Shown here piece by piece: positions 5,005 through 55,413 of a stretch of 64,000 nt of DNA. The position numbers and the translations under genes were made by a program. The notes below the pieces were generated by a model. That model was not told where the DNA came from. It saw only the letters and a list, made by a program, of their open reading frames with translations, and made no database searches. Origin of the DNA: an uncultured Mucilaginibacter sp. (GTDB taxonomy: Bacteria > Bacteroidota > Bacteroidia > Sphingobacteriales > Sphingobacteriaceae); assembly GCF_937859865.1 (NCBI RefSeq), contig NZ_CALMAT010000092.1, forward strand, positions 46,198 through 110,197, given 5' to 3'. Position 1 is the first letter of the stretch; every line of letters starts with the position of its first letter.

Positions 5005-5038
5005 CGATACTGTTTTTATGCCGATAAAAACAGTATCG
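5005..5038. repeat. compact palindromic DRM pair (ACAG variant); hairpin between convergent genes
   Basis: cgatactgtttttat-gccg-ataaaaacagtatcg forms a 15-bp perfect stem. Confidence 0.9.
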
Positions 5039-5063: not shown

Positions 5064-5558
5064 TTACTGTTTCACAAAATTATAAACTACGTAACCTGTT
5101 TTCCCGCCGTATTGCACAGGAGATTTTAACGTCATGGTGTTGGCCGTCATGGCAGTAATCAGCAAACGGTAACCATCTTCCACATTTTTTGGCTTGTCTT
5201 TATCAAACAACATTTTAAATTGAAACTCCGGCCCATTGGCACCATTGGCAAACGACCAGAAAATATTTTGCGTAAAACCAACTTGACAGCCGTTTTGCGT
5301 ATTGTTGATCATGAACGAACCGCTCCCGCTGTTGGTCAGTTTCCAGTTGCTGTTTTCAAAGCATTTATAAGGCGCAGTATTGAAAACAGACTGAACGGCA
5401 CCCGGCAGCAACCCTTCTAAAGTAACCGCACTGATTCCCCAATTACCCGAAATATTGCCACGCGAAATAGCATTCGGGTCCTTTTTCAAAGTGGAACAAG
5501 CGGAGAAAATTAAGGCAACCAGCATTACAGTTGCTGTTTTTAAAAAGGTCTTTTTCAT
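5064..5558 (-). CDS. lipocalin-like lipoprotein (hypothetical)
   Basis: MKKTFLKTATVMLVALIFSAC lipoprotein signal from the ATG at 5558. The 22-codon extension in the track ORF covers a repeat copy and is probably not translated. Confidence 0.5.
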   Translation of the reverse strand: MKKTFLKTATVMLVALIFSACSTLKKDPNAISRGNISGNWGISAVTLEGLLPGAVQSVFNTAPYKCFENSNWKLTNSGSGSFMINNTQNGCQVGFTQNIFWSFANGANGPEFQFKMLFDKDKPKNVEDGYRLLITAMTANTMTLKSPVQYGGKTGYVVYNFVKQ

Positions 5559-19436: not shown

Positions 19437-19497
19437 AATTTTTATACGGTAAAAGAAGCATTATAATTTTTGCTTGTACAAATTTAAACAGGCTTTA
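19437..19497 (+). repeat. right-hand half of the MITE-like element (copy C), abutting the truncated pseudogene
   Basis: aatttttatacggtaaaagaagcatt...caaatttaaacaggcttta aligns with the right ends of 29113-29168 and 32621-32675. Confidence 0.65.
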
Positions 19498-19565
19498 AGT
19501 TTATTCAATTGGGTTTTCTGTGTGGCAAAAAGGGTTGGACTTCGCAATCGGCTATTTTTTACAGC

Positions 19566-20402
19566 TTAAAATTTACCACTTCTGAAATCTGTATATGCCT
19601 GCTTAATTTCTTCTTCAGTGTTCATAACAAAAGGGCCACGCGCTACAACAGGTTCGTTCAGTGGTTTTCCTGCGATAAAGATTACCCGCAATTTTTCATC
19701 GGCTTTAATCACTGTTTCGCTTGTTCCGGCTTTTTCTTTTACATTGTCCAATAATAAAACGTCTCCTTTCCCGGCTTTTACCTGGTTGTCTCCGAACGTT
19801 CCCGAACCTTCCAGGATATACATAAAACCGTTGTAGTCGGAAGGCAAATCCTGTTTTGCCGTATGGCCGGGATCAATATTTATTTCTACATAAGTTACCG
19901 GAACATAGTTTTTTGTTGCTGATACAACATTGCCTGAATTACCGGAAATTACACGATAATGAACGCCTTCTTCTTTTCGTACAGGGACATTGCTGCTTAA
20001 AATGTCCTGATAACGGGGTGCTGCCATTTTGTTGGCTTTTGGTAAGTTTACCCATAATTGAAGGAGATGTGTGGTAACGTTTTCAGGTGGCGCTTCCAGG
20101 TGTATAATGCCGCTTCCTGCTGTCATCCATTGTGCGTCTCCCGGTTTTAAAATGCCCGTTCCCCCTTTATTATCCGAGTGTTCTAATACGCCGTCAATGA
20201 TATACGTTACAGTCTCCATTCCGCGGTGCGGGTGAAAGTCAAAAGCATTTTTTTGAAATACGTCCTCTGCCATTATTAAAAAAGGGTCAAATTCTTGCAG
20301 GTTTCCTGACGGTAACACTAAACCTGCCGAATGGATATCACTGTTTTTTTTCAGTGAAACCTTCCAGGTTCTTTTTATTTTTCTTTGAGCTTTTGTATTC
20401 AT
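19566..20402 (-). CDS. pirin family protein
   Basis: HPHRGMETVTYIIDGVLEHSDNKG and GDAQWMTAGSGIIHLE pirin cupin motifs. The ATG at 20402 (MNTKAQ) follows the DoxX stop by 7 nt. Confidence 0.85.
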   Translation of the reverse strand: MNTKAQRKIKRTWKVSLKKNSDIHSAGLVLPSGNLQEFDPFLIMAEDVFQKNAFDFHPHRGMETVTYIIDGVLEHSDNKGGTGILKPGDAQWMTAGSGIIHLEAPPENVTTHLLQLWVNLPKANKMAAPRYQDILSSNVPVRKEEGVHYRVISGNSGNVVSATKNYVPVTYVEINIDPGHTAKQDLPSDYNGFMYILEGSGTFGDNQVKAGKGDVLLLDNVKEKAGTSETVIKADEKLRVIFIAGKPLNEPVVARGPFVMNTEEEIKQAYTDFRSGKF

Positions 20403-20409
20403 TGCTTTT

Positions 20410-20823
20410 TTATTTAAAACTAAAGATTTCTTTAGAGGGATTATTACTACTGACATTTCTAATAGCTAGATATTTCTTGCTATAAGTAAATGACACTACA
20501 AGGATACCCAGAAATATCAATGGCATTATGGCAACTAATATTGGGTCGCCGCTTGATGTGTGGGCAATAAACGCTGAAATAAATGTTATTCCAAATCCCA
20601 CATAAGCCATATCCTTTATTTCCTTCGGGATAAATGGCAGCAACAAAACTATAACACCGATGATTTTTGCTATTGCGAGTTCAATTCTAAAGTAATTTGG
20701 AAAGCCAAGATGTACAAAAGCAGCTTTCATTTCTTGGTTCGTTAAGTAACTAAAGGCACTAAAGAGCATCATAGCTCCAATTATTCCTGTAGCTGTCCAG
20801 TAGATGATTTTATTCTTTTTCAT
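20410..20823 (-). CDS. DoxX-family membrane protein
   Basis: 137 aa with four predicted TM helices in DoxX-like organisation. Co-oriented with the pirin gene. Confidence 0.65.
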   Translation of the reverse strand: MKKNKIIYWTATGIIGAMMLFSAFSYLTNQEMKAAFVHLGFPNYFRIELAIAKIIGVIVLLLPFIPKEIKDMAYVGFGITFISAFIAHTSSGDPILVAIMPLIFLGILVVSFTYSKKYLAIRNVSSNNPSKEIFSFK

Positions 20824-20845
20824 TTTGTTTACTTATTGTTTTAAA

Positions 20846-21439
20846 TTAGAGTTTAATCAAATTTTGAAGTGATAAAAGGCCTTTCGCCTCTTGAAGTTTA
20901 CCGCCGGCAGCTAATTCGCCTAAGTCAACCGGGGCAAAGCCAATAGCCTTTATCATTTCGCTTACCGCTGCTTTTGCTTCTTTGTCGTCTCCGGAAACAA
21001 AAAGCACACGATGCCCATTTTCCATTACGGGGTCTGCTGCCAGCACTTTAGCGGCAAGCGTATTAAAAGCTTTCACTATTCTTGCCCCCGGAAGATGATC
21101 CTGCACTACTTGGCTGGAAGCCCTGCCGCCTAAATCCTCCACCTGATAATCAGGGGTAAAGTGGTTGGTGGCATCAATTATAATTTTGCCTTCCCAATCT
21201 CTAACTGGAGTTAGGTTTTTGACTTTTGACCATGGTAAGGCCAATAGTACAATATCGGCATCGGCAGCCTCGGCCGTCGTTGCCGCTTTTGCCCCTTTCC
21301 CTAATTGTGATATGGTATTTTCCAATGTTTCAGGTCCCTTGCTATTACTGATAATAACAGGGATATTATTTTTTAATAAATGGGCAGCAACAGTTTTCCC
21401 GATGTTTCCTGCCCCAATAATTCCAATTGTTTTTTTCAT
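20846..21439 (-). CDS. NADP-dependent oxidoreductase (F420-oxidoreductase/ProC-like Rossmann domain)
   Basis: IGIIGAGNIGKTVAAHL dinucleotide-binding motif and overall similarity to NADPH-dependent F420 reductase-like proteins. Confidence 0.75.
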   Translation of the reverse strand: MKKTIGIIGAGNIGKTVAAHLLKNNIPVIISNSKGPETLENTISQLGKGAKAATTAEAADADIVLLALPWSKVKNLTPVRDWEGKIIIDATNHFTPDYQVEDLGGRASSQVVQDHLPGARIVKAFNTLAAKVLAADPVMENGHRVLFVSGDDKEAKAAVSEMIKAIGFAPVDLGELAAGGKLQEAKGLLSLQNLIKL

Positions 21440-21515
21440 TTTATTTGATTATTTAACAATGCAAAGATGCAGGCATGAACCGCCCTTCTCCAATGACATT
21501 TGAAGGAAAAAAACC

Positions 21516-21529
21516 TTGACAAATGTCAA
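21516..21529. promoter_or_regulatory. candidate Crp/Fnr-family operator TTGAC-AAAT-GTCAA
   Basis: Perfect 5-N4-5 inverted repeat, 77 nt upstream of the ATG at 21439 and 21 nt downstream of the Crp/Fnr gene stop. Same geometry as the FNR box TTGAT-N4-ATCAA. Confidence 0.5.
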
Positions 21530-21549
21530 AGGCAGTCAATAAAGATTGA

Positions 21550-22128
21550 TTACTTTTTCGTGGATTGACTTCTTACCCTGCTTAAAGTTTCAGCAGATAC
21601 GCCGAGGTAAGATGCAATCATGTGCAATGGCACACGATTGCCAATAGAAGGATACTTTAGAATAAAGTTGCTGTATTTTTCTTCGGCAGAAAAAGATATG
21701 CTGACATGAATGCGCTCTTGCAGGACCACAATATTTTTTCTAAGCGTGTCATTTACAAAATTATTAAAAGCTGGAATTGTCTTGCGGATCATTTCAAAAT
21801 CTTCTTTCTTCAGCAATAAAATTTCGCTGTCTTCGATGGCATCAATATTATATTTTGAAGGCAGGCCTGAGTCCATGCTTTCCCTGTCTCCTGTCCAGTA
21901 ATTTTCAGGAACAAACTGCATAATATGTTCCTGCCCTTTTTCGTCCGCATAATAATAGCGCAGAAAACCCTTGCATACAAACGCATTAAACCGGCACACA
22001 TCCCCTGCCTGTAAAAGGTATTGACGTTTCCGAAGCTTTTTAAATGACGAAACGGATTTGATCAACTCATAATCCTGATCGGTTAAAGCGATCTTGTCTT
22101 CTAAATATTTTCGGAATGTCTCAAACAT
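21550..22128 (-). CDS. Crp/Fnr family transcriptional regulator
   Basis: N-terminal cNMP-binding beta-roll and C-terminal HTH (ASYLGVSAETLSRVR). Confidence 0.85.
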   Translation of the reverse strand: MFETFRKYLEDKIALTDQDYELIKSVSSFKKLRKRQYLLQAGDVCRFNAFVCKGFLRYYYADEKGQEHIMQFVPENYWTGDRESMDSGLPSKYNIDAIEDSEILLLKKEDFEMIRKTIPAFNNFVNDTLRKNIVVLQERIHVSISFSAEEKYSNFILKYPSIGNRVPLHMIASYLGVSAETLSRVRSQSTKK

Positions 22129-22228
22129 AGTTTTAATAGATGATTATCAAAATCATGGATGTTCAAATAGGTGTCAGATGTTGTTTAGAGCCACGTACAA
22201 CTCGCTAATTGTCAAAAGCTTAAACCTC

Positions 22229-23665
22229 CTAAAAAATACTCGCATTCTTATCCGTCAATTTCTGCCATTTAGGTTCGATAACCAACTTCGGGTAATCGCG
22301 CCCCAATTGGATGCCATAAACAGCTAATTCAGAAGGTGTTAAAAAAAATGGTGTATGAATTTGCTTGCCGGAAATACCGCTTAACTCTGGCACCCAAACC
22401 TTTACGTATTGCCCTTTCGGGTCAATTTCTCCGGCTTGCTTAACTACATTTAAAGCCCGGTTTTCCTTCGAATCATTGCCTACACCGGCAATGGAAGCCC
22501 AATTGCCCCAATTGGTTGCCGGGCTGTAATCAATTAGTTTTTCTTCAAAATAAGCAGCGCCGCAAGTCCAGTTTACTTGCAAATCCTTCGCTAAAAAGCT
22601 GGCCGCATTGTACCTGCCGCGGATGCTGGTATAACCTGTTGCGTTGATTTCGCGCATTACGGCATCAATAAAAGGAACGCCGGTTTGCCCGGTTTTCCAT
22701 TTTTCAAAAAGTTCGTCCTGGTTGGCAGCTTCCGGCGGGGCCTGGCCTTTAAAGCCTTCTTTCTGAAAAAACTGGTCGCCATGCTTTTTAAACATAAACC
22801 GGTAATAATCCCGCCACAGCAGCTCCAGCACAATGGCATGGGTTGTCGCGTTGCTGCCATGCAGTTTTTCGTACTGCTGCACTTCCCAATAAATTTGCCG
22901 GGGCGAAATACAGCCCATCGACAACCAAACCGACATGGTATTGGCAAAATCGGCACCAACCTGTGCGGCTTTTTCCTGATTTTCTGCCTTAGAAAAATTA
23001 TGCAAGCGTTTTAAACCTTCCGATTCTCCGCCTACAAAACGCATTACGGCACGTTCATCATCAAAAGGTTCGGTCAAACCTAAGTCGGCCAAAGTCGGGA
23101 TTTCGCCTGCATCGGCAATTTCCGGCGTGGTTATTTTTTCGGGAGAAACGGCACAACGCCGAACCTGACTATCGCGTTCTACTTTTTTGCGGAAAACAGC
23201 AAAAGCATCCGGGATATCTTTGATCGGGAACGGCAAATCTTCTTTGTTGTACAGCGTGTGGCCGATAAAATGCTTCAGATTCAGTTTCTGTTTCCACAAC
23301 GCAGCTTCTACTTTGGCCGAAATACCGGTTTCTTCAAAAGCCACTTCGCGGTGGTGATAAACTTCGGAAACCTGATATTGCTGCGCCAGTTCGGGAATGA
23401 TCACAGCCGGATCGCCAACGCGGATTAGCAATTCTCCGCCTAAATTTTTTAATGTCTGACGCAAATCCGCCACAGATTCGTTGATAAAACGTGCCCTGAA
23501 GTTCCCTGTTTTTTGTGTGCCAAAAGAAGTATTGCGGTAATAAAACGGGTCAAAACAATAAACCGGCAAAACAGTGTCTGCCTTGTTCACGGCCTCTGTT
23601 AAAACCTCATTGTCCTGAACCCGAAGATCGTTTCTAAACCAAACTAAAATCGTTTTGCCGCTCAT
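22229..23665 (-). CDS. DASH-family cryptochrome (ssDNA photolyase type)
   Basis: ILVWFRNDLRVQDNEVL N-terminus, FAD-binding C-terminal domain (WRDYYRF, GWMSNRGR-like TSIRGRYNAASFL) and a length typical of Cry-DASH. Confidence 0.85.
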   Translation of the reverse strand: MSGKTILVWFRNDLRVQDNEVLTEAVNKADTVLPVYCFDPFYYRNTSFGTQKTGNFRARFINESVADLRQTLKNLGGELLIRVGDPAVIIPELAQQYQVSEVYHHREVAFEETGISAKVEAALWKQKLNLKHFIGHTLYNKEDLPFPIKDIPDAFAVFRKKVERDSQVRRCAVSPEKITTPEIADAGEIPTLADLGLTEPFDDERAVMRFVGGESEGLKRLHNFSKAENQEKAAQVGADFANTMSVWLSMGCISPRQIYWEVQQYEKLHGSNATTHAIVLELLWRDYYRFMFKKHGDQFFQKEGFKGQAPPEAANQDELFEKWKTGQTGVPFIDAVMREINATGYTSIRGRYNAASFLAKDLQVNWTCGAAYFEEKLIDYSPATNWGNWASIAGVGNDSKENRALNVVKQAGEIDPKGQYVKVWVPELSGISGKQIHTPFFLTPSELAVYGIQLGRDYPKLVIEPKWQKLTDKNASIF

Positions 23666-23710
23666 ATATTTAGTACAAATTAAGCATAAAATGGTTATTT
23701 ATGGTGATCT

Positions 23711-23857
23711 TTATTTAGCTCGGCGACAACGTTCGCTGCAATATTTTACTTCTTCCCAACATTTCTCCCACTTTTTTCGCCACGCAAAAGGACGGCCGCA
23801 TTGCACACAAATTTTAACTGGCAGGTTGGCTTTGGTGTATTTTTTGGTTTCGGGCAT
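23711..23857 (-). CDS. DUF2256 zinc-ribbon protein
   Basis: [48 protein letters not shown] from the ATG at 23857. This small protein commonly accompanies photolyase/cryptochrome genes. Confidence 0.7.
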
Positions 23858-23934
23858 CTGCAAATTTAACCGAAGGAAAGCTAAACTATCAATGAACAAA
23901 CAAATACAAGTTATGTTACTTTACAACTGCTAAC

Positions 23935-23960
23935 AAAATTTAGCCGATAAAAGAAGTATG
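23935..23960 (+). repeat. DRM, forward; last 3 nt are the SDR start codon
   Basis: aaaatttagccgataaaagaagtATG. Confidence 0.85.
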
Positions 23961-29010: not shown

Positions 29011-29168
29011 GCCTGTTTAAATTTCTATCAGTAAAAGTTTCCAATGCTTCTTTTATGCCTATAAATTCTGTTTTTAAATGATTGGCCGATACAAAAAGTA
29101 TAATAAACCAATGATTTTTAGGGGATAAAAGAAGCATTGAAAATATATTGAATAAAATTTAAACAGGC
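29011..29168. mobile_element. MITE-like ~158-bp element (copy A) with 14-bp terminal inverted repeats and an internal inverted DRM pair
   Basis: TIRs are gcctgtttaaattt (29011-29024) and aaatttaaacaggc (29155-29168). Internal DRM reverse copy at 29043-29067 and forward copy at 29113-29138. About 135 bp align with copy B at roughly 85-90 percent identity by eye. Confidence 0.5.
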
Positions 29169-29184
29169 TCTAAATAAAAAAACT

Positions 29185-29210
29185 AATTTTTAGGCGATAA
29201 AAGAAGCATT
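29185..29210 (+). repeat. DRM, forward
   Basis: aatttttaggcgataaaagaagcatt; 97 nt upstream of the TetR ATG at 29307. Confidence 0.85.
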
Positions 29211-36134: not shown

Positions 36135-36180
36135 AATTTTTACCGGATAAAAGAAGTATGCTTATTTTATCCGGTAAAAA
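36135..36180. repeat. DRM forward copy overlapping a degenerate reverse copy (tail-to-tail palindrome)
   Basis: aatttttaccggataaaagaagtatgcttattttatccggtaaaaa, with ccggataaaa/ttttatccgg arms. Confidence 0.75.
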
Positions 36181-36211
36181 CCCGCGTTACTGTTTGTAAC
36201 GCGGGTTTTTT
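36176..36211 (+). terminator. rho-independent terminator of the RND operon
   Basis: acccgcgttac-tgtttg-taacgcgggt stem followed by tttttgg. Confidence 0.8.
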
Positions 36212-36217
36212 GGTTTT

Positions 36218-36246
36218 TGTCATGCCGAAACAAGTTCGGCATGACA
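36218..36246. repeat. GTCATGCCGAA palindrome (12-bp stem)
   Basis: tgtcatgccgaa-acaag-ttcggcatgaca. Confidence 0.8.
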
Positions 36247-36254
36247 GCGCGAGA

Positions 36255-36331
36255 CATACTTCTTTTACCAACAAAAAATCCGCGTTGCCACAAACAGCAA
36301 CGCGGATTTTATACCGATAAAAACAGTATCC
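36255..36331. repeat. motif-terminator-motif composite (DRM reverse, katE terminator, DRM forward ACAG variant)
   Basis: catacttcttttaccaac-aaaaaatccgcgttgccacaaacagcaacgcggatttt-ataccgataaaaacagtatcc; same architecture as 9961-10053. Confidence 0.75.
36273..36310 (-). terminator. rho-independent terminator of katE
   Basis: The minus strand reads aaaatccgcgttgc-tgtttgtg-gcaacgcggatttttt. The stem sequence is a near copy of the plus-strand terminator at 36176-36211. Confidence 0.8.
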
Positions 36332-36341
36332 TAAATTTTAA

Positions 36342-38516
36342 CTATGCCGGAAACTTCTCTTCCGGTTTTTCACGCTCCCAGAAACGGTGTTTGCTGATGG
36401 CATCAATGAAAACAGCAGGCGATTGGTTTAAAACCAAACCCATTTTTGCCAGTTTCGATTCATCTGATGTACCTGCCAATACCTTTTTGCCCAAATAAGA
36501 ACCTTTTAGCAGTTCAATCGCTTCTTTATCCGCAGCAATTGGTTTGCAATGGCGGTAAGCTTCGTCCACAAAATGGAAAGCATCCCCTTCTTTTTCCAAA
36601 GCTGCAATGCTGTCTTTTCCTCCGGGAATATAAACCGCATCAAACAAAACAGAGGCAGCTACCAGGAAGCTTTGGTCAACATTAATCGCATTGCCTTTGC
36701 TGTCTTTGATTTTGCCTAATTTTGGGGCAATAACTTTTACCGTTGCGCCTGCTGCTTTTAACGCAGATTTCATGGCATTTAATGCATCGCCATCTACGCC
36801 GTTTGCCGCTAAAAAAGCAATTTGCCGTGTTTTGATGCTTTTGCTCACCACTTTGGCCATGCTTAAAGCTTCCGATTTTTTGATCGACGATTTGCCTTTT
36901 ACAGATTCTGATTTTGCCGGGTCTGCATCTGCGCCGTGGCTAAAATTCATTGGCGATTCCGGTTTTGAAGGGACTGCCATGCCCAAACCTTCGGCCACTT
37001 TGCTTACTAAAGTTGCATCTATTTGAGACAATAAACCCAGCATTCGCATACGTATTTCTTCCATATCTACTTTGCCCAATTCAAAACGCAAAGCATCAAT
37101 GATGTGGTTCTGCTCTATTTCTGACATGCTGTTAAAAAACAAGGTTGCCTGGCTAAAATGGTCGCGGAAACTATCACTGCGTGCCCTGATTTTTTTGGCA
37201 TCAATCCGTTCTTGGTAAGAAGTAAAACCACCTTCGGAAACTTTGGCCTGTTTTGGGAAACCGTCAGCAATTTTATTTGGTTCGTATGCCACCCGGCCAC
37301 TGTTGATCGTTTGGCGCATATGGCCTTCGCGTTGGTTATTAACAACCGGCGCGATAGAACGGTTGATGGGGATTTCATGAAAGTTTGGGCTGCCTAAACG
37401 TGTCAACTGGGTATCCGTGTAGGAAAATAGGCGGCCTTGCAACAATGGGTCGTTGGTGAAATCCATACCAGGGACAATATGGCCAAGGTGAAAAGCCACT
37501 TGCTCTGTTTCAGCAAAATAACTGTCCGGGTTTCGGTTTAGCACCATTTTACCAATACGTTGGACAGGGACTAATTCTTCTGGTACAATCTTGGTCGAAT
37601 CTAAAATATCAAAATCAAATTTGTGTTCGTCTTCTTCGGAGATCAATTGCACGCCCAGCTCCCATTCCGGGAAATCACCGTTTTCTATTGCTTCCCACAA
37701 ATCCATACGGTGGAAGTCGGGGTTTTTACCTGAAATTTTCTGTGCTTCGTCCCAGGCAACAGAAAAAACGCCTTGCAAAGGTTTCCAATGAAATTTTACA
37801 AAGGTTGCTTTGCCTTCTTCATTAATCAACCGAAAAGTATGTACACCAAAACCTTCCATCATACGATAGCTGCGCGGAATGGCACGGTCGCTCATCAGCC
37901 ACATAATCATGTGCATGGATTCTGGCATCAGCGAAATAAAATCGTAAAAAGTATCATGGGCAGAGGAAGCTTGAGGGATTTCGTTGTGTGGTTCGGGCTT
38001 TACAGCATGGATCAAATCCGGGAAGTTGATCGCATCCTGGATAAAAAACACAGGTATATTGTTTCCCACAAAATCATAAATCCCTTCTTCGGTATAAAAT
38101 TTAACTGCGAAACCACGGACATCGCGTGCCAGATCGGTTGAACCACGCGAGCCGCCAACGGTAGAAAAACGGGCGAAGATGGGTGTTTTGCGGGAAGGAT
38201 CATTTAAAAAACCGGCTTTGGTGTATTTGGCCATGGGTTCGTAAACCTGGAAATAACCATGCGCACCGGTGCCCCGAGCGTGCACTACCCTTTCCGGGAT
38301 GCGTTCATGGTCAAAATGGGTGATTTTTTCCCGCAGGATAAAATCTTCTAAAAGTGTTGGGCCACGGTCGCCTGCTTTGAGCGAGTTATGGTCGTCGTTT
38401 ACTTTTAAGCCCTGGTTGGTGGTTAAAAACTGGCCGTCGGAATAAGAAGTATCCTGCTCCAGATCTTGTAGCTTTTTGTTGGTTTCGGTTCTGTTTTGCT
38501 GATTTTTGTTTTCCAT
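36342..38516 (-). CDS. katE: catalase HPII (large-subunit clade with C-terminal DJ-1/PfpI-like domain)
   Basis: 724 aa with catalase core motifs (RERIPERVVHARGTGAHGYF, RLFSYTDTQ) plus a ~150-aa C-terminal flavodoxin-like extension. Confidence 0.95.
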   Translation of the reverse strand: MENKNQQNRTETNKKLQDLEQDTSYSDGQFLTTNQGLKVNDDHNSLKAGDRGPTLLEDFILREKITHFDHERIPERVVHARGTGAHGYFQVYEPMAKYTKAGFLNDPSRKTPIFARFSTVGGSRGSTDLARDVRGFAVKFYTEEGIYDFVGNNIPVFFIQDAINFPDLIHAVKPEPHNEIPQASSAHDTFYDFISLMPESMHMIMWLMSDRAIPRSYRMMEGFGVHTFRLINEEGKATFVKFHWKPLQGVFSVAWDEAQKISGKNPDFHRMDLWEAIENGDFPEWELGVQLISEEDEHKFDFDILDSTKIVPEELVPVQRIGKMVLNRNPDSYFAETEQVAFHLGHIVPGMDFTNDPLLQGRLFSYTDTQLTRLGSPNFHEIPINRSIAPVVNNQREGHMRQTINSGRVAYEPNKIADGFPKQAKVSEGGFTSYQERIDAKKIRARSDSFRDHFSQATLFFNSMSEIEQNHIIDALRFELGKVDMEEIRMRMLGLLSQIDATLVSKVAEGLGMAVPSKPESPMNFSHGADADPAKSESVKGKSSIKKSEALSMAKVVSKSIKTRQIAFLAANGVDGDALNAMKSALKAAGATVKVIAPKLGKIKDSKGNAINVDQSFLVAASVLFDAVYIPGGKDSIAALEKEGDAFHFVDEAYRHCKPIAADKEAIELLKGSYLGKKVLAGTSDESKLAKMGLVLNQSPAVFIDAISKHRFWEREKPEEKFPA

Positions 38517-38722
38517 TTTCGTTTTAGAATTAGTGGGCTTTGTTTGGAGGAAGTTTAGGCAAAGTGTTTTTTAAAAAAATGAGGTTTAGAAACCCTACCT
38601 TCTTATCTTAGGATTGCCTTTTATAAGAAGTTATTTCCTTTTGGTTTTGTTTCTATTCAAATAATTAATATTTGTTCAACAAGGCATTAACTGAAATTGC
38701 TGTAACCGGAAAATGAAAAGCA

Positions 38723-38748
38723 AATGCTTCTTTTAGCACATAAAATTT
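38723..38748 (-). repeat. DRM, reverse
   Basis: aatgcttcttttagcacataaaattt; 207 nt upstream of the katE ATG. Confidence 0.8.
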
Positions 38749-38776
38749 AGTGCTCGGCAACCGTAAAATTTAAAGT

Positions 38777-38803
38777 AAAAAAATATAGGGTAAAAGAAGC
38801 ATT
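38777..38803 (+). repeat. DRM, forward
   Basis: aaaaaaatatagggtaaaagaagcatt. Confidence 0.7.
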
Positions 38804-38821
38804 ACAGCCGAAGAACCAACC

Positions 38822-38846
38822 CTACTGTTTTTATCCCCTTAAAATC
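38822..38846 (-). repeat. DRM, reverse (ACAG variant, degenerate)
   Basis: ctactgtttttatccccttaaaatc. Confidence 0.6.
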
Positions 38847-38870
38847 AGCAACTACATTAGTGAAAACAGT

Positions 38871-39308
38871 TTACACACCAATATCTTCATTCCAAAGTTC
38901 CGGGCTTTCTGCAATAAACTTTTGCATCAATTCATAACACATCTTATCGTCAACCACCGTTACACTTACGCCTTTGCTGCGCAACAGTTCTTCTTCGCCC
39001 ATAAAAGTTTTGTTTTCGCCGATGATAACTTTAGGTATCCCATACAGTAAAATAGTGCCGGAACACATGGGGCAGGGAGAAAGCGTGGTATACAGTTCGC
39101 ACTCGCGGTAAACAGCTGCAGGCAAGCGTCCTGCATTTTCTAAGGCATCCATTTCGCCATGCAAAATTGCGCTGCCTTTTTGTACGCGCCGGTTGTGTCC
39201 GCGGCCGATAATTTTGCCCTGATGCACCAGCACAGAACCAATCGGGATACCGCCTTCGGCAAAACCGGCCGCAGCTTCGGCATAAGCCGCTTCTAAAAAT
39301 TCTTTCAT
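38871..39308 (-). CDS. cytosine deaminase, FCY1-type (CMP/dCMP deaminase zinc-binding fold)
   Basis: HGEMDALEN and LSPCPMCSG zinc motifs. End-to-end resemblance to yeast-type cytosine deaminase, including the C-terminal WNEDIGV. Confidence 0.75.
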   Translation of the reverse strand: MKEFLEAAYAEAAAGFAEGGIPIGSVLVHQGKIIGRGHNRRVQKGSAILHGEMDALENAGRLPAAVYRECELYTTLSPCPMCSGTILLYGIPKVIIGENKTFMGEEELLRSKGVSVTVVDDKMCYELMQKFIAESPELWNEDIGV

Positions 39309-39749: not shown

Positions 39750-40655
39750 ATGGGCAAGCATATTTTAATTACCGGCGGAACCGGGTTGGTTGGCAAACAC
39801 CTTACCAGCCTTCTACTCGAAAAAGGCTACACCGTAAGCCATTTGAGCCGAAAAACAGGCATCAACTCAAAAGTAAAAACCTTTTTGTGGGATGTGGCCA
39901 AAGGCAGTATTGATGCCAATTGTATCAACGGTGTAGATTTGATCATCCATTTAGCAGGCGCAGGCGTGGCCGATAAACGTTGGACGGACGAGCGGAAACA
40001 AGAGATCATCAGCAGCCGGACGAAATCCATTGAACTGATTTATAACTTGTTGAAACAGCATCCGCACCAAATTAAAAAAGTAGTTTCTGCTTCGGCAACG
40101 GGTTTTTACGGTGATTGCGGGAATGAGATGGTAACAGAAACTTCACCTTCTGCAAAAGATTTTTTAGGCCAATGCTGTGTAGTTTGGGAAAAAGCGGTGG
40201 ACGAAGGTGCAGCTTTAGGTTTGGAAATTTTGAAATTAAGAACGGGCGTGGTTTTGACCGATGAAGGCGGTGCTTTGAAACAATTGGCCTTGCCCATCAA
40301 ATTTGGTTTTGGCACAATCCTTGATTTAGGCAAGCAATGGGTTCCCTGGATCCATTTGCAAGATGCCATTGATTTATACCTTTTTGGGATTGAAAAAGAG
40401 CTGACCGGTGTTTATAATATGGTTGCGCCAAACCCGGCAACCAATGCCAAACTTACCATCACCGCAGCAAAACAATTAAACCGACCATTATGGTTGCCCA
40501 AAGTTCCGGCGTTTGCTTTGAAATTAGCTTTGAGCGAAATGAGTGCCGTGGTTTTAGCCAGCACAAAGGTATCGGCAGCAAAAACAGAACAAGCCGGTTT
40601 TGTATTTAAATATCCAACAATAAAAGAAGCCATCCGCGAAATTTATGCCCGATAA
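39750..40655 (+). CDS. TIGR01777-family (YfcH-like) NAD-binding epimerase-fold protein with DUF1731 C-terminus
   Basis: ILITGGTGLVGKHL motif and ~300 aa architecture typical of this family. Overlaps the photolyase gene by 11 nt. Confidence 0.85.
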   Translation: MGKHILITGGTGLVGKHLTSLLLEKGYTVSHLSRKTGINSKVKTFLWDVAKGSIDANCINGVDLIIHLAGAGVADKRWTDERKQEIISSRTKSIELIYNLLKQHPHQIKKVVSASATGFYGDCGNEMVTETSPSAKDFLGQCCVVWEKAVDEGAALGLEILKLRTGVVLTDEGGALKQLALPIKFGFGTILDLGKQWVPWIHLQDAIDLYLFGIEKELTGVYNMVAPNPATNAKLTITAAKQLNRPLWLPKVPAFALKLALSEMSAVVLASTKVSAAKTEQAGFVFKYPTIKEAIREIYAR

Positions 40656-40665
40656 AAAAAGCATC
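40639..40665 (+). repeat. near-full DRM spanning the overlap junction of two genes
   Basis: aaatttATGcccgaTAAaaaaagcatc. The motif-internal ATG is the photolyase start, and the TAA is the stop of the TIGR01777-family gene. Confidence 0.7.
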
Positions 40666-41955
40666 AACTTGTTTTGGTTCCGCCGCGATTTAAGGCTGAC
40701 CGATAACGCCGGTTTTTACCACGCGCTCAAAAGTGGCAAACCGGTTTTACCAATGTTTATTTTTGATACCGAAATTCTGGACAAGCTGGAAGACAAAGAT
40801 GATTCGCGCGTTACTTTTATCCACCAATCGCTTGTTAACATGAACGAGGAACTGAAGCGGTTGGGCAGTTCGATGCTCGTTAAAAATACATCGCCAAAAG
40901 AAGCATTTGCCGAAATTTTGAATGAATATGCAGTTGATACTGTTTTTACCAACCACGATTACGAACCGTACGCCAAAGAGCGCGATACAGAAATCGCCCA
41001 AATTTTAGCAGCTAAAAACAGCAAATTTTGCACTTATAAAGACCATGTTATTTTCGACCGGAACGAAGTGATGAAACCCGACGGTAGCCCGTACACTGTT
41101 TTTACCCCGTATTCGCGCAAATGGAAAGAAAAGTTGAACGATTTTTACCTAAAGCCTTATCCGGTAGAAAAATACCTGCAAAACCTGTATCAAACCCAGC
41201 TTACTTTCCCTACATTACATGATATTGGTTTTGAAAAAAGTTCGATCCAAGTCCCTAAAAACGAATACAAATCCATCATTGCCGATTATGCCAAAACGCG
41301 AGATTTCCCGGGGCTGGAAGGCACTTCACGGATCAGCGTCCATTTGCGGTTTGGCACGGTCAGCATTCGCGAACTGGCAACTGAAGCCAATAAACAAGTA
41401 GAAAAAACCTGGCTGAATGAACTGATCTGGCGAGATTTTTATGCCATGATTATCTGGCATTTCCCGCAAACAGCCAACCATGCTTACAAACCCGAATTTG
41501 ATAAAATCCAATGGCGCAACAACGAGCAGGAGTTTGAAGCCTGGTGCAAAGGCGAAACCGGCTACCCGATTGTGGATGCCGGGATGCGGCAATTGCATGC
41601 TTTGGGCTGGATGCACAACCGCGTGCGCATGGTTGCGGCCAGTTTTTTATGCAAGCATTTATTGATTGACTGGCGTTGGGGCGAACATTATTTTGCCCGA
41701 AAACTGCTGGATTATGATTTGGCCAGCAATGTAGGCGGCTGGCAATGGGCCGCAGGGACTGGTGCCGATGCATCTCCGTTTTTCAGGATATTTAGCCCAG
41801 AAGCACAAACCAAACGCTTCGACCCAAAATTTGAATACATTAAAAAATGGGTGCCCGAATATCTTGATCCATTTAAATATCCAGCACGAATCGTAGATCA
41901 TAAAGAAGCGCGGGAACGATGTTTGGCAGCATTTAAAAAAGCACTGAACGGATAA
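40645..41955 (+). CDS. phrB: deoxyribodipyrimidine (CPD) photolyase, class I
   Basis: LFWFRRDLRLTDNAGFYHAL, WRDFY, GWMHNRVRMVAASFL and GGWQWAAGTG motifs. Confidence 0.9.
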   Translation: MPDKKSINLFWFRRDLRLTDNAGFYHALKSGKPVLPMFIFDTEILDKLEDKDDSRVTFIHQSLVNMNEELKRLGSSMLVKNTSPKEAFAEILNEYAVDTVFTNHDYEPYAKERDTEIAQILAAKNSKFCTYKDHVIFDRNEVMKPDGSPYTVFTPYSRKWKEKLNDFYLKPYPVEKYLQNLYQTQLTFPTLHDIGFEKSSIQVPKNEYKSIIADYAKTRDFPGLEGTSRISVHLRFGTVSIRELATEANKQVEKTWLNELIWRDFYAMIIWHFPQTANHAYKPEFDKIQWRNNEQEFEAWCKGETGYPIVDAGMRQLHALGWMHNRVRMVAASFLCKHLLIDWRWGEHYFARKLLDYDLASNVGGWQWAAGTGADASPFFRIFSPEAQTKRFDPKFEYIKKWVPEYLDPFKYPARIVDHKEARERCLAAFKKALNG

Positions 41956-41991: not shown

Positions 41992-42008
41992 AGTGCGTTC
42001 TTGTTTTT

Positions 42009-42086
42009 GTCATGCCGGACTTGTTTCGGCCTACGCAAAATTAGTTCTACTTTTCATGAGAGATCTTGAAATAAATTTAGGATGAC
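42009..42086. repeat. GTCATSC...GATGAC inverted-repeat element
   Basis: gtcatgccggacttgtttcggc ... gatcttgaaataaatttaggatgac; the arms are imperfectly complementary. Confidence 0.55.
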
Positions 42087-42091
42087 AGCAC

Positions 42092-45692: not shown

Positions 45693-46187
45693 ATGAAAAA
45701 AATTTGTCTTTGTTTGTTGTTCATATCCGTCGTTTTATTTTACAGCAAAAAGGCCGGCGCGCAATCGTACCAAACGGCTGCCGGGCTGCGCTTTAGTTAC
45801 GAAAGCGGCATTTCCGTCAAATATTTTACAGACCCAACAACAGCTTTGGAAGGTGTTTTGGGTTTCCGTACCAAAGGCGTGGTGTTTACGGGTTTAATTG
45901 AAAAACACCAACCGGCTTTTAACGTAGCCGAACTGAAGTTCTATTATGGTTTTGGCGGGCACGTTGGCGGCGTGGGCAGCGGCGGTTATCGGGTTTATAA
46001 TGGCGATTACAAAGTTTATAACAATTCTTCCCTATTGTTGGGTGCTGATGGCGTGATCGGTTTAGAATATGTAATCCCGGATTCGCCAATTGCGGTTAGT
46101 GTTGATCTTGACCCACGCATCGAAATTTTCCGCGGGCCGATTTTTAATTTGACACCAAGCCTGGGCATCAAATATGCTTTTAAATAA
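45693..46187 (+). CDS. small outer-membrane beta-barrel protein (hypothetical)
   Basis: Signal peptide ending AGAQ, alternating beta-strand pattern and an aromatic C-terminal residue region (GIKYAFK). Confidence 0.5.
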   Translation: MKKICLCLLFISVVLFYSKKAGAQSYQTAAGLRFSYESGISVKYFTDPTTALEGVLGFRTKGVVFTGLIEKHQPAFNVAELKFYYGFGGHVGGVGSGGYRVYNGDYKVYNNSSLLLGADGVIGLEYVIPDSPIAVSVDLDPRIEIFRGPIFNLTPSLGIKYAFK

Positions 46188-46250
46188 AATTTATGCCGAT
46201 AAAAGAAGCATTGCAAAATTTATCGAATGCTTCTTTTATCGGCATAAATT
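46186..46250. repeat. perfect inverted DRM pair (25-bp stem, 13-nt loop) between convergent genes
   Basis: aatttatgccgataaaagaagcatt (46188-46212), gcaaaatttatcg, aatgcttcttttatcggcataaatt (46226-46250). Confidence 0.95.
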
Positions 46251-46271
46251 CATTGGCCAAAATCCCTCCTT

Positions 46272-48128
46272 TTACATCACCCGCACCTTTAAAAAACTTG
46301 GTTCTGTTTTAGAAGTATAAACTTTCATGGTTGCTTTTTGAAAATCAGTAGGCGTAGCTTGCATAACATTCATAAACTTTTGCGGGTTGCGGTCAATCAA
46401 AGGAAACCAAGTGCTTTGGATTTGCACCATCACCCGATGGCCTTTTTTAAAGGTGTGCAACACATCCTGCAACTCAAAATTAACCGGCGTAACTTTTCCG
46501 GGAACAAAAGGCTCCGGTTTAGAAAAACTGTTGCGGTATTTGCCGCGCATAGCCTCGCTCCGCACCATTTGCTCGTAATGCGACAATTGCACATTTTGCC
46601 CGGTAAAAGAAGTATTCTTGGTGGAATCAGGATAAACATCAATCACTTTCACTACCCAATCGGCATCGGTTCCCGTAGTCGAAACTTTTAAATTGGCCCA
46701 GATATTTCCGGCCAAAGTTAAATCATCACTTAAAATATCCGTTTGATAAGTTAAAACATCGGGTCGGGTTGTTACAAAACGCTGGTCGGCCGTCATGTAT
46801 TCGCGGTCCATGTCCATCGAAGTGTTGCTGAGAAAAGGGACAGGTTTGTTCGGGTCAGAAATATAGCTGTTAAAAGAAGCATTGGTTTTTGGCGGATCGA
46901 AAGAAAGTTTTCCGTTGGACAGGAAATACAAGTTTTTCTCCTGCGCTTCTTTTGCTGGCCATGTTTTATAGGTTTTCCATTGGTTGGAACCCGTTTCGAA
47001 AACAGAAACCGGCTGCAAATCCGTCTGTGTTCCTTTTAAATAATGACTGAAGAATTTAAACTCAATATTTTCCCGATAGTAAGCTGCCGTTGCCGAACCA
47101 AAACCAACATCGCCCAAATGATCGCCATTGCCTCTCGCCCAACCGCCGTGAACCCATGGGCCCATCGCAAAGTAAGCAGGCGTTGTCGGGTTATTTTTCA
47201 CAATAGTTTTATACGTGTTGATGGCACCGTACAAATCTTCCGCATCGTACCAGCCGCCTGTTACCAAAACTGCGGTTTTGATGTTGGTTAAATGCGGCAA
47301 TACGTTTCGGTCTTTCCAGTGTTGGTCGTAATCCGGGTGGTCCAGCATTTCGTTCCACAAACGGATTGTATCCTTATAATACAATGTGTTCGAGTTTTTC
47401 ATCGTGGCCATCCGCAGGAAAAAATCGTAGCCATCTTCTGTTCCGGCGTTAAATTCTGTTGCCTGACGTTGCGTCGGCTTGTCATCCTGCCGATTGGTAA
47501 AACCTGGATAAAAACCGAAGTTGGCCACCAGCATAAAAGCACCATTGTGGAAAGCATCATCGCGGTACAAATCCGCAATTGGTGCCTGCGGAGAAGCGGC
47601 AACCAGTGCTGGGTGCCGACTTAACAAAGCGGTTGTAGTATAAAACCCGGGATAAGAAATCCCCCAAACGCCAACTTTTCCATTGTTATTGGGAACATTT
47701 TTCAGCAGCCAGTCGATCGTATCATAAGTATCCGTGCTTTCGTCCACATCGTTTTTGGTGGGATGCACATCCTTTTCCGGTGTCATTTCCTCATAAATGC
47801 CTTCGCTCATCCACCGGCCGCGCACATCCTGGTAAACAAAAATATAACCATCATGCAAAAACAATGGCGAAGGGCCTAAGGAACGCCGGTACTGATCGGC
47901 TCCGTACGGTGCAACGCTGTACGGCGTACGGTCCATCATCAGCGGATATTTTTTGGATTTATCTTTCGGCACATAAACTGAAGTAAACAGCTTTTTGCCG
48001 TCGCGCATCGGGATTTGGTATTCGAATTTCTGGTAATTGGCTTTTACATACACAGAATCGGCATTTACTTGGGCGGAAACTTGCCTAAAAAACAGGCATA
48101 AAAGAAGCATCGCGGCTATTTTTTTCAT
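46272..48128 (-). CDS. CocE/NonD-family hydrolase (X-Pro dipeptidyl-peptidase S15-like)
   Basis: DRTPYS, VGVWGISYPGFY nucleophile elbow and a C-terminal jelly-roll domain. The ATG at 48128 gives the signal peptide MKKIAAMLLLCLFF. Confidence 0.85.
   Translation of the reverse strand: MKKIAAMLLLCLFFRQVSAQVNADSVYVKANYQKFEYQIPMRDGKKLFTSVYVPKDKSKKYPLMMDRTPYSVAPYGADQYRRSLGPSPLFLHDGYIFVYQDVRGRWMSEGIYEEMTPEKDVHPTKNDVDESTDTYDTIDWLLKNVPNNNGKVGVWGISYPGFYTTTALLSRHPALVAASPQAPIADLYRDDAFHNGAFMLVANFGFYPGFTNRQDDKPTQRQATEFNAGTEDGYDFFLRMATMKNSNTLYYKDTIRLWNEMLDHPDYDQHWKDRNVLPHLTNIKTAVLVTGGWYDAEDLYGAINTYKTIVKNNPTTPAYFAMGPWVHGGWARGNGDHLGDVGFGSATAAYYRENIEFKFFSHYLKGTQTDLQPVSVFETGSNQWKTYKTWPAKEAQEKNLYFLSNGKLSFDPPKTNASFNSYISDPNKPVPFLSNTSMDMDREYMTADQRFVTTRPDVLTYQTDILSDDLTLAGNIWANLKVSTTGTDADWVVKVIDVYPDSTKNTSFTGQNVQLSHYEQMVRSEAMRGKYRNSFSKPEPFVPGKVTPVNFELQDVLHTFKKGHRVMVQIQSTWFPLIDRNPQKFMNVMQATPTDFQKATMKVYTSKTEPSFLKVRVM
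46591..46617 (+). repeat. near-full DRM inside the CocE/NonD CDS (antisense)
   Basis: acattttgcccggtaaaagaagtattc; on the gene strand it encodes KNTSFTGQN. Confidence 0.65.
46861..46883 (+). repeat. DRM core inside the CocE/NonD CDS (antisense)
   Basis: atatagctgttaaaagaagcatt; on the gene strand it encodes NASFNSY. Confidence 0.6.
48087..48111 (+). repeat. DRM inside the CocE/NonD signal-peptide codons; 33 nt upstream of the divergent MNT gene
   Basis: aaaaaacaggcataaaagaagcatc; on the gene strand it encodes AMLLLCLFF. Confidence 0.65.
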
Positions 48129-48143
48129 CAGAAAATCAATTTT

Positions 48144-48470
48144 ATGTATAAGCAGCATTTGGATATATTTGTTCTGATGAAAAGAAGGGAACAAATTATT
48201 TTTTGGATCAGCGCTATTTTGAAAAAAAACCTTGCTGGTTTAAACTATCGTGCTTTTATTTTTGGTTCCCAGGCAAATCTGACCGAATTAAAAAGATCAG
48301 ATATAGATATTGGTTTGATTGGCAATGAACCAATTTCACCTAAATATTTAGCTGCAATTGAGGAAGAAATAGAAAACTTGCCGATGTTGTACAAAATTGA
48401 TTTGGTAAATTTTAATGAGGTAGATGAACGTTTTAAAACTATTGCCTTAAAAAATGCAGAATGGCTGTGA
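48144..48470 (+). CDS. MNT-type nucleotidyltransferase (HI0073-like; antitoxin of a HepT/MNT pair)
   Basis: FGSQANLTELKRSDIDIG matches the GSx10-20DxD Pol-beta NTase motif. Start is 48144 or 48177. Confidence 0.75.
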   Translation: MYKQHLDIFVLMKRREQIIFWISAILKKNLAGLNYRAFIFGSQANLTELKRSDIDIGLIGNEPISPKYLAAIEEEIENLPMLYKIDLVNFNEVDERFKTIALKNAEWL

Positions 48471-48853
48471 ATGATTATTTTGAAGATAAGCTCGAAACTT
48501 TTGAACAAGCTTTATCAACTTTTAAAGAAGGCTTGCTTCCACAGCCTTCTTTGTTAGAGCGGGACGGTGCAATCCAACGCTTCGAATATTGCTTTGACCT
48601 TTCCTGGAAAACCTTAAAACGCTTTTTGGAAAAACGCGGTTTGATGGATTTGAATAGTCCGCGGTCTGTTTTCGCTGCTGCTTATGCTGAAAGTATCATT
48701 AATGATGAACAAGTTTGGGCAAACATTATTTTAAAACGAAACGCATCTGTCCATACTTATAACCAGAAAATGGCCAATGCTTTATTTGAGTTATTACCCA
48801 GTTATTATGAAGTTATGCGTAATTTATTTTTTAAGATGAAAGAGATGGCTTAG
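48461..48853 (+). CDS. HI0074-family nucleotidyltransferase substrate-binding protein (HepT-like toxin)
   Basis: IQRFEYCFDLSWKTLKRFL and RNASVHTYN motifs. Overlaps the NTase gene by 10 nt. Confidence 0.8.
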   Translation: MAVNDYFEDKLETFEQALSTFKEGLLPQPSLLERDGAIQRFEYCFDLSWKTLKRFLEKRGLMDLNSPRSVFAAAYAESIINDEQVWANIILKRNASVHTYNQKMANALFELLPSYYEVMRNLFFKMKEMA

Positions 48854-49145: not shown

Positions 49146-49179
49146 AAAAAAGCCTCTGCCAAAATTGGCAAAGGCTTTT
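49146..49179 (-). terminator. rho-independent terminator of pgk
   Basis: The minus strand reads aaaagcctttgcc-aatttt-ggcagaggctttttt. Confidence 0.75.
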
Positions 49180-49211
49180 CATACTGTTTTTATGCCGATA
49201 AAAACAGCATC
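49180..49211. repeat. compact palindromic DRM pair (ACAG variant) overlapping the pgk stop
   Basis: catactgtttttat-gccg-ataaaaacagcatc. Confidence 0.9.
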
Positions 49212-50474: not shown

Positions 50475-50506
50475 GATGCTGTTTTTATGCCGGTAAAAAC
50501 AGTATC
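50475..50506. repeat. compact palindromic DRM pair (ACAG variant) overlapping the GNAT stop
   Basis: gatgctgtttttat-gccg-gtaaaaacagtatc. Confidence 0.9.
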
Positions 50507-54645: not shown

Positions 54646-55413
54646 ATGAAAACCATATTGCCCTGCCGCATAAAGCCGATACTGTTTTTAGCCCTATTTT
54701 TTTTGTCTTCCTGTGCTTACAAGCAGCAGCACGCTTTGTTTAAAACCGATGTGCCGCAACCGGTTGCCACTGTGCCGAATCCTGTTTATCCAACTTACAA
54801 AATCTGCCCCGGCGATTTGCTCCAGATACGGAACCTGCAAAATATAAAATACATTGCCGAAGAACAAACCGGTTCGGCAGTTGCTACACAAGCGCCCAAT
54901 TATCAGGTGGAAGAAGACGGAACAGTTGCCCTGCCCGCTTTGGGCCGTATTGCTGTTGCCGGGCTGACCAAGTTGCAGGCCGCCCGAAAAATCGAAGAAC
55001 TGTACAAATCGAGCCTGTTAAAAGATCCTATTATTGACCTTAAAATTATTAATCTAAAAGTAACTATTTTGGGCGAAGTGCGTACACAAGGCAATTACTT
55101 GTTGCTAAAAGATAAAACAAACCTGGTAGATATGATTGGCGAAGCAGGCGGGCTAACCGACAAAGCAAACGAAAAAACGATACAAATTATCCGCGGCGAT
55201 AAAGCAAACCCGCAGGTAATTGTGGCCGATTTGAACAACATTAAAACGCTGGCAAAGCTGGATTTAAACCTGCAAAATGGCGATATTATTTATGTTTCCC
55301 AAAACAAGCGCACCGTCCGCAACGAATCTATGCAAAACGTTTCTACTATTGTACAGGCAGCTTTGGTTTTTCTGAACACGGCACTCATCATCTACACGCT
55401 TACCAAAAAATAA
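54646..55413 (+). CDS. polysaccharide export outer-membrane protein (Wza-like)
   Basis: LSSC lipobox, Poly_export motif (YKICPGDLLQIR) and an SLBB-like region. Confidence 0.85.
   Translation: MKTILPCRIKPILFLALFFLSSCAYKQQHALFKTDVPQPVATVPNPVYPTYKICPGDLLQIRNLQNIKYIAEEQTGSAVATQAPNYQVEEDGTVALPALGRIAVAGLTKLQAARKIEELYKSSLLKDPIIDLKIINLKVTILGEVRTQGNYLLLKDKTNLVDMIGEAGGLTDKANEKTIQIIRGDKANPQVIVADLNNIKTLAKLDLNLQNGDIIYVSQNKRTVRNESMQNVSTIVQAALVFLNTALIIYTLTKK

Follow-up and report, generated by a model that had tools for sequence, protein, structure and literature searches.

Two inverted copies of a bipartite motif form a long hairpin in the spacer between a pair of convergent genes, within a 64-kb stretch of DNA (hereafter 'the window', which denotes the entire stretch that was analysed), and copies of the same motif are distributed across that window and across the genomes of a single clade of related bacteria. 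The explanation that best accounts for these observations as a whole, and to which we assign a likelihood only slightly short of even, is that of a motif-pair hairpin whose motif copies are maintained at the level of DNA, likely by way of DNA uptake, with such pairs being kept 3' of stop codons. In the mechanism proposed here, the motif would be retained and multiplied by a process that acts on the DNA sequence itself, and inverted pairs would persist immediately after stop codons, since they would do little harm in that position.

The original prediction described a perfect inverted pair at this site, and both repeat searching and RNA folding confirmed it: the two arms (46188-46212 and 46226-46250) are each 25 nt in length, are 100% complementary, and are separated by a 13-nt loop (46213-46225), the entire hairpin extending from 46188 to 46250. 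Folding of the plus strand in silico gave an energy of -34.8 kcal/mol (z = -8.3), with none of 200 shuffled sequences being equally stable, and folding of the corresponding region of the minus strand gave -47 kcal/mol (z = -6.1). Nine matches to the 25-mer of the arm, with up to 3 mismatches, were found in the window, against 0.00 expected from shuffled sequence. The G+C content of the arm is 28%, corresponding to 7 G-C pairs among the 25 of the stem. While the left arm had been described as overlapping a stop codon, that codon (TAA, 46185-46187) is in fact abutted by the 25-nt arm, and the sole overlap is of a single base, between the plus-strand ORF and the AT block of the motif (46187-46192). 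On the opposite side, the right arm lies 21 nt from the stop codon of the minus-strand gene (46272-46274), and the 84-nt spacer is without a G+C-rich terminator-like site, both as predicted.

The plus-strand gene that ends at the hairpin is a 164-aa ORF for a secreted protein (45693-46187), with a signal peptide and a C-terminus reading ...YAFK. It displayed no match to Pfam or NCBIfam, its single-sequence fold was uninformative (pLDDT 33), and the other ORF of 164 aa in the window (5064-5558) is not its paralogue; its description as a possible small outer-membrane beta-barrel is plausible. The convergent gene on the minus strand (46272-48128) encodes a CocE/NonD-family hydrolase of 618 aa, counted from MKK..., with Peptidase_S15 and PepX_C domains, and harbors three coding copies of the motif (46604-46615, 46871-46882 and 48099-48110). 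Among the window proteins scanned only housekeeping functions were found, and a scan of the window for Rfam families and tRNAs gave no matches. Three genes of the photolyase family and a large catalase (17293-18735, 22229-23665, 40645-41955 and 36342-38516) fit a light- and desiccation-exposed lifestyle on lichen surfaces. The longest motif-free stretch in the window (19462-23947, 4.5 kb) contains genes for a pirin, a DoxX protein, an F420-type oxidoreductase, a cNMP-binding regulator and a photolyase. A toxin-antitoxin-like pair at 48144-48853, composed of an MntA-type nucleotidyltransferase and an NTase_sub_bind/HepT-like protein, has a G+C content of 34% and no copy of the motif; the pair is present in the window and in two related loci (L003 and L028), is absent at the same place in four others (L001, L002, L005 and L006), and would fit, as a single case, recently moved DNA that has yet to acquire the motif.

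As derived from logos of copies in the window and in its relatives, the motif is approximately 25 nt in length and bipartite, corresponding to RAAWTT-N5-G-N-TAAAAGAAGYAT, with TAAAAACAGYAT as an alternative core. The core exists in two discrete forms, with either GA or AC at its positions 5-6; in clade DNA these were counted 78 and 44 times, respectively, as compared to 7 and 4 occurrences of the intermediates GC and AA. At a coding site (54679-54690) and its orthologues, either TAAAAACAGYAT or TAAAAGAAGYAT is present according to species, and intermediates never are, a pattern which suggests that whatever reads the motif does not distinguish between its two core forms. Within the window, TAAAAGAAGCAT occurs 30 times, and TAAAAGAAGTAT and TAAAAACAGTAT occur 13 times each. 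The first copy at the hairpin (46187-46211, plus strand) is composed of the AT block AAATTT (46187-46192), the spacer ATGCC (46193-46197), a G at 46198, an A at 46199 and the core TAAAAGAAGCAT (46200-46211); its AT block and core fit the consensus, and the core is identical in the orthologous spacers of two related loci (L001 and L007). The second, inverted copy (46227-46251, minus strand) has its core at 46227-46238, its G at 46240 (a C on the plus strand) and the AT block GAATTT at 46246-46251, leaving a gap of 15 nt between the two cores. In intergenic units, the 5' flank of the motif is a degenerate inverted half-site of the core, which creates an imperfect palindrome of the pattern AYACT-AA-TTTTAT / NNNN / ATAAAA-GA-AGYAT with a conserved mismatch, and the AC form is often a perfect palindrome of 30 nt. 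One such self-palindromic form, ATACTGTTTTTAT-GCCG-ATAAAAACAGTAT, is found in another convergent spacer (5007-5036), and further copies are located at 49181-49210 and 50476-50505.

The window contains 61-63 cores (63 when the core is written as TAAAA[GA][AC]AG[CT]AT), a density of approximately one per kilobase. The orthologues of the CocE/NonD protein, the best of which are 94-97% identical to it, place the window in a Mucilaginibacter-like lineage of the Sphingobacteriaceae. Among 80 species loci compared, the motif is carried by 8 (L001-L007 and L028, all from metagenome-assembled genomes), all of which display 85-97% CocE/NonD identity and have core densities of 0.8-1.5 per kilobase; it is close to zero in the other 72, from Mucilaginibacter, Pedobacter and related bacteria. 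In the DNA of those 72 outgroup loci (1.43 Mb) the two core forms together occur 6 times, which is approximately 250 times rarer, and no other 11-mer is comparably enriched there, such that no other motif 'dialect' was found among these relatives. A density of approximately one per kilobase was also found in some 650 kb of metagenome contigs, and 641 strict cores were counted in 714 kb of clade DNA, some counts being inflated in that orthologous copies in related genomes are not independent. The sequencing runs that hold this sequence are mostly labelled as lichen metagenomes, and in contigs from lichen metagenomes the read depth over the arms is approximately 20 times that of the flanks, with assemblies breaking at the arms. 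Viral contigs scanned with GATAAAAGAAGCAT gave, among the matches listed, only single ones at chance level, and literature searches with the motif string returned unrelated primers only. The distribution of the motif is limited to a single clade, Mucilaginibacter-like and lichen-associated, whose sister species have essentially none of it. Three of the loci (L002, L003 and L005) come from public metagenome-assembled genomes titled 'Janthinobacterium lividum', the genes of which are nonetheless Mucilaginibacter-like (85-87% CocE/NonD identity, 38-40% G+C, motif density approximately 0.8-1.0 per kilobase), and that taxonomic label looks wrong.

Copies of the motif are found both in genes and between them: 40 copies in the window are intergenic, in spacers that represent 13% of the DNA, 28 lie in ORFs and 4 straddle gene ends. 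Across clade DNA the density is 0.26 per kilobase deep inside long ORFs, as compared to 2.3 per kilobase elsewhere, and coding copies display a bias of reading frame toward the peptides [VI]KEA[SL], xASFx and MLLL. Three copies of mixed orientation are present in each of two spacers (29044-29209 and 38724-38833), and motif gain may be especially frequent in such arrays. Of these copies, those at 29044 and 29126 are shared with L001, with which the spacer at 38519-38874 did not align.

The origin and conservation of coding copies was examined in a codon alignment of the CocE/NonD gene from the window, 6 motif-bearing orthologues and 23 motif-free ones. All three copies in this one gene were created by substitution of outgroup codons, with no added length, and lie in variable parts of the protein (examples being a change from NT-KW to NT-SF and the MLLL of the signal peptide). 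Two of the three cores have no synonymous-site variation across the aligned motif-bearing species, and in the third the only alternatives are ATG and ATA, each of them an allowed form; third codon positions adjoining the cores do vary. Over all alignable sites, conservation of the core and of the block at -13 to -8 was 0.88-0.99, and that of the 5-nt spacer and the flanks was 0.62-0.81 (in the more distant comparisons, whether in genes or in spacers). Certain copies originated inside the clade, through several clustered changes. Because the coding copies arose by substitution, and because core and AT block are conserved, these results rule out a spread by insertion only (as for REP elements and MITEs) and a role that is purely at the level of RNA, and indicate that some process acts on the DNA sequence of each copy.

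Several further types of element were considered and rejected. A polar motif of the Chi or KOPS type is not indicated, as the strands are used without bias: the first 23 kb of the window has 10 copies on each strand, and the 714 kb of clade DNA has 325 cores on one and 316 on the other. The consensus of Bacteroidota promoters combines TTTG at -33 with TAnnTTTG at -7; a promoter reading was set aside because the logo displays no conservation upstream of -18, and because copies occur in both orientations and in coding sequence. In a few cases a copy finishes with ...CATG at a start codon, and the reverse complement reads MLLLSA followed by a stop, but only approximately 4 of 72 copies fit a translation-start or mini-ORF reading, and the stop is not conserved. 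Neither does the motif behave as a MITE, given its lack of target-site duplications, its unit of approximately 25 nt, and the creation of its coding copies by substitution. Alternating with the motif is a further repeat family, of approximately 85 nt and with hairpin ends, which reads TTTTTGTCATGCCGAACTTGTTTCGGCATC...GGATCCTGAAA..TTCAGGATGAC; it has one full and one partial copy in the window (42003-42090 and 36214-36252, respectively) and three tandem units in the orthologous convergent spacer of L001 (15925-16332), and may be a small mobile element that lands beside the motif or carries it.

The placement of inverted pairs had been likened to that of DUS and USS pairs, and counts across gene boundaries bear this out. 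In a 196-kb sample, chosen irrespective of pairs, a pair was present in 8 of 19 convergent spacers, in 14 of 81 tandem spacers and in 1 of 24 divergent spacers (Fisher p = 0.006), and single copies were present in 15 of the 24 divergent, promoter-containing spacers. Scanning 650 kb of motif-rich metagenome contigs for perfect cores placed head to head gave 68 distinct pairs: 20 convergent, 32 tandem, 4 divergent, 3 inside ORFs and 9 at contig edges, so that 52 of the 56 that could be classified lie in convergent or tandem spacers. For most, a stop codon is 1-45 nt away. Of the 20 convergent pairs, 15 are within 35 nt of both stop codons, and therefore represent nearly the whole of the spacer, as is the case at the hairpin. 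The gap between cores displays a peak at 14-16 nt (28 of 68 pairs, p = 9e-11), with the 15 nt of the hairpin being the commonest spacing, and the median fold energy is approximately -22 kcal/mol.

Comparison of the hairpin with its orthologues indicates what has been maintained there. In the window the sequence of the left arm is TTTATGCCGA, as against TTTTGGTTGA for L001 and TTTAGGTTGA for L007; the three right arms, by contrast, are identical but for one base at most. The loops vary. The stems of L001 and L007, of approximately 14 bp, still fold, with no compensatory changes. As judged from this alignment, the perfect 25-nt pairing is derived and specific to the lineage of the window, and is not conserved. 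The left arm of the window differs from that of its relatives by a cluster of changes, every one of which creates complementarity, and a single template-switch correction is the best explanation for that reason; the 25-nt perfection would accordingly be a recent correction of a 14-bp imperfect palindrome rather than a selected feature. Outside the core, complementarity among the 68 metagenome pairs is approximately 5 of 13 positions, which is the level of chance. Maintenance appears to act on each core, and not on the pairing between them; the hairpin teaches that each core is the conserved unit, and that the long perfect stem is probably a recent accident.

The predicted function of the hairpin, as a bidirectional terminator, has some basis in its layout. 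The core, read as TAAAAGAA followed by GCAT...ATGC and TTCTTTTA, presents an A-tract, a stem and a U-tract on both strands, and since this is the arrangement of bidirectional terminators, termination or 3'-end protection is plausible. The stem adjoins one stop codon and lies 21 nt from the other, a position that fits a terminator; its G+C content (28%) and 13-nt loop depart from the G+C-rich stem and short loop of that class. Beyond the stem, the plus strand reads CAUUGGCC, which is not a U-tract, and the minus strand reads UUUUAUUU; averaged over the 68 pairs, 2.8 T residues are found in the 10 nt that follow the core stem, which is background, and the U-rich distal stem UUCUUUUA could substitute for a U-tract. 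Termination is, from these tails, more plausible for the CocE/NonD transcript than for the plus-strand transcript. Terminators built from USS and DUS similarly have long stems and few T residues in their tails (PMC1852404, PMC2397512). Searches for RNA sequencing runs that contain this region, or the nearby pgk-gap region, returned none. Elsewhere in the window, motif copies flank canonical G+C hairpin terminators (36176-36210 and 36272-36312) in the convergent spacer at 36148-36329, and another canonical terminator (49148-49179) stands beside a motif hairpin; because motif hairpins lie beside separate canonical terminators, the motif does not appear to be needed for termination in general, or to be primarily a terminator. 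Those three are textbook bidirectional terminators (an A-run, a G+C stem and a T-run), and their A and T runs merge into the flanking motif copies, such that AT block and tails share bases. It is about equally probable that inverted pairs do, or do not, end or stabilise both convergent transcripts as A-tract/stem/U-tract hairpins, and persist harmlessly 3' of stop codons; the pair at 46188-46250 has probably been co-opted as such a 3'-end hairpin.

That the motif is a dedicated bidirectional intrinsic terminator and nothing else, with an abundance that mirrors the number of transcription units, is improbable. A stable hairpin placed directly after one stop codon and near the other, in a spacer with no other terminator and with many analogous convergent spacers, is what such an element would look like, and the layout of the core agrees with it; more than one third of copies, however, are inside genes in both orientations, single copies occur in the 15 divergent spacers noted above, motif hairpins coexist with separate canonical terminators, stems lack a U-rich tail, and relatives have lost the outer stem pairing without compensation and yet kept each core. 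A product of chance or of assembly is the least credible of all the alternatives, to the point of near-dismissal: short-read assemblies do break at the arms, but no chance matches are expected and the fold has a z of -8.3, and because the independent assemblies of L001 and L007 both carry the two inverted cores at the same place, an assembly artefact is excluded.

Two other accounts carry somewhat more weight, and both are considered unlikely. One, the less probable, is that of a selfish element like REP or REPIN, an imperfect palindrome spread on single-stranded hairpins by an HUH/Y1 (RAYT-type) transposase, the hairpin then being a doublet of the REPIN type that has settled in a 3' spacer where it does no harm. 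The intergenic units resemble such elements in being imperfect palindromes with a conserved mismatch, of which one form is palindromic throughout; in addition, doublets placed directly 3' of stop codons give long hairpins, and motif-containing repeat units differ by presence and absence in one spacer between the window and L001. Copies are nevertheless found deep inside genes (0.26 per kilobase), and the three coding copies examined, which are conserved across species, are products of substitution without any gain in length. Conservation of both AT block and core extends to genes, in which a hairpin cannot form, and neither a transposase in the window nor a RAYT among the window proteins scanned was found. 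Known REP families are several times less dense than one copy per kilobase. The other account, unlikely but with an appreciable share of the probability, is that of a site for an abundant clade-specific DNA-binding protein (with a role in the nucleoid, in repair or in self-marking) or for some other DNA process distinct from uptake, comparable to HIP1, the hairpin being incidental to two head-to-head sites. A bipartite motif with a fixed, variable spacer of 5 nt, two discrete core forms with rare intermediates, a preferred pair spacing of 14-16 nt and a conservation independent of strand and coding status all fit recognition by a protein, and yet such a site would give no reason to expect pairs to be enriched at 3' ends and depleted from divergent spacers. 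The sites of known nucleoid proteins are degenerate, and are not known to be imposed on the sequences of proteins.

Preferential uptake and recombination of motif-bearing DNA during natural transformation, in the manner of DUS and USS, is tentatively the most likely identity of the process that maintains the motif, at a probability visibly short of even. The motif displays all of the sequence-level properties of DUS and USS that were assessed (drawn from PMC2817400, PMC2397512, PMC3630211 and PMC1852404): it matches them in density, in its even use of the two strands, in its restriction to one clade, in the conservation of its positions, in having coding copies created by substitution at permissive sites, and in the placement of its inverted pairs at 3' ends. 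It represents at that level a candidate uptake-sequence system in Bacteroidota. In the literature searched, the treatment of uptake sequences is limited to two proteobacterial families, the Neisseriaceae and Pasteurellaceae (bioRxiv 10.1101/2025.10.24.684340); Riemerella columbina, of the Bacteroidota, prefers its own DNA, with no uptake motif defined (PMC7965970), and searches on uptake sequences in Bacteroidota and Mucilaginibacter returned no description of the motif. The fuller claim, that this clade may possess a sequence-specific uptake system with its own bipartite signal, the first outside the Neisseriaceae and Pasteurellaceae and the first in Bacteroidota, with the hairpin as a co-opted terminator pair, is a shade more tentative again. 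The uptake reading is weakened by the palindromic intergenic half-site, a REP-like trait that is absent from DUS and USS, and the REP-like and protein-site readings retain their share of probability because the motif is bipartite and approximately 25 nt long, has two core forms, and forms palindromic units between genes. No competence or pilus genes were found in the 64-kb window, and a crude screen for prepilin leaders and large ComEC-like proteins in approximately 850 kb of clade DNA, a sample too small to establish absence, gave only false positives.

Sequence-specific uptake is known from two proteobacterial families only, and its origin and purpose have been argued from those few examples. 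If the uptake reading is correct, the motif would supply a third, unrelated system in which to test the origin of such motifs, their recognition and their cost to proteins. The candidate case is located in another phylum and in an environmental, symbiosis-associated clade, and the motif appears to be recent, being absent from sister species. It marks the DNA of that clade in lichen metagenomes and explains why assemblies break at these sites, and were uptake real the clade could become genetically tractable.

Several known elements resemble the motif in part. The REP and REPIN sequences of Enterobacteria and Pseudomonas are likewise imperfect palindromes of 25-35 nt, with inverted doublets that form long hairpins and with positions after stop codons; REPs, however, are extragenic units spread by RAYT, whereas coding copies here were made by substitution and the core is conserved without a hairpin. 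The HIP1 motif (GCGATCGC) of cyanobacteria is very abundant in the genes and spacers of one lineage, with a function that is unsettled (bioRxiv 10.64898/2026.06.24.733823). HIP1 and the motif are thus both short, abundant and typical of a lineage, and occur in genes and spacers alike, but HIP1 is a perfect 8-bp palindrome tied to DNA methyltransferases, whereas the motif lacks such symmetry and has three times the length. The hairpin shares with canonical bidirectional intrinsic terminators a stem-loop between convergent genes that is flanked by A-rich and T-rich runs, and differs from them in its 28% G+C, 25-bp stem, its 13-nt loop and the absence of a T-run beyond the stem on the plus strand.

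The closest parallels are with the two established systems of uptake sequences, from both of which the motif differs in being unrelated in sequence and known from sequence alone. As compared to the DUS of Neisseriaceae, it belongs to another phylum, is a longer, bipartite element of approximately 25 nt, and displays two core forms per genome, a core gap of 14-16 nt and a degenerate inverted half-site; as compared to the USS of Pasteurellaceae, its AT block is 5' of the core. Like DUS, it occurs approximately once per kilobase on both strands, in the genes and spacers of one clade, at positions that are conserved between species above their surroundings and that lie in permissive parts of genes, and its inverted pairs are placed like those which, close together after genes, act as terminator stems in the Neisseriaceae (PMC2397512, PMC3630211). 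With USS it shares a strong core accompanied by a weaker AT-rich block approximately one helical turn away, a bias of coding copies in reading frame and peptide (PMC2817400), a preference for poorly conserved residues (PMC2817400, PMC3458573), and pairs that form long, terminator-like stems with few T residues in the tail (PMC1852404).
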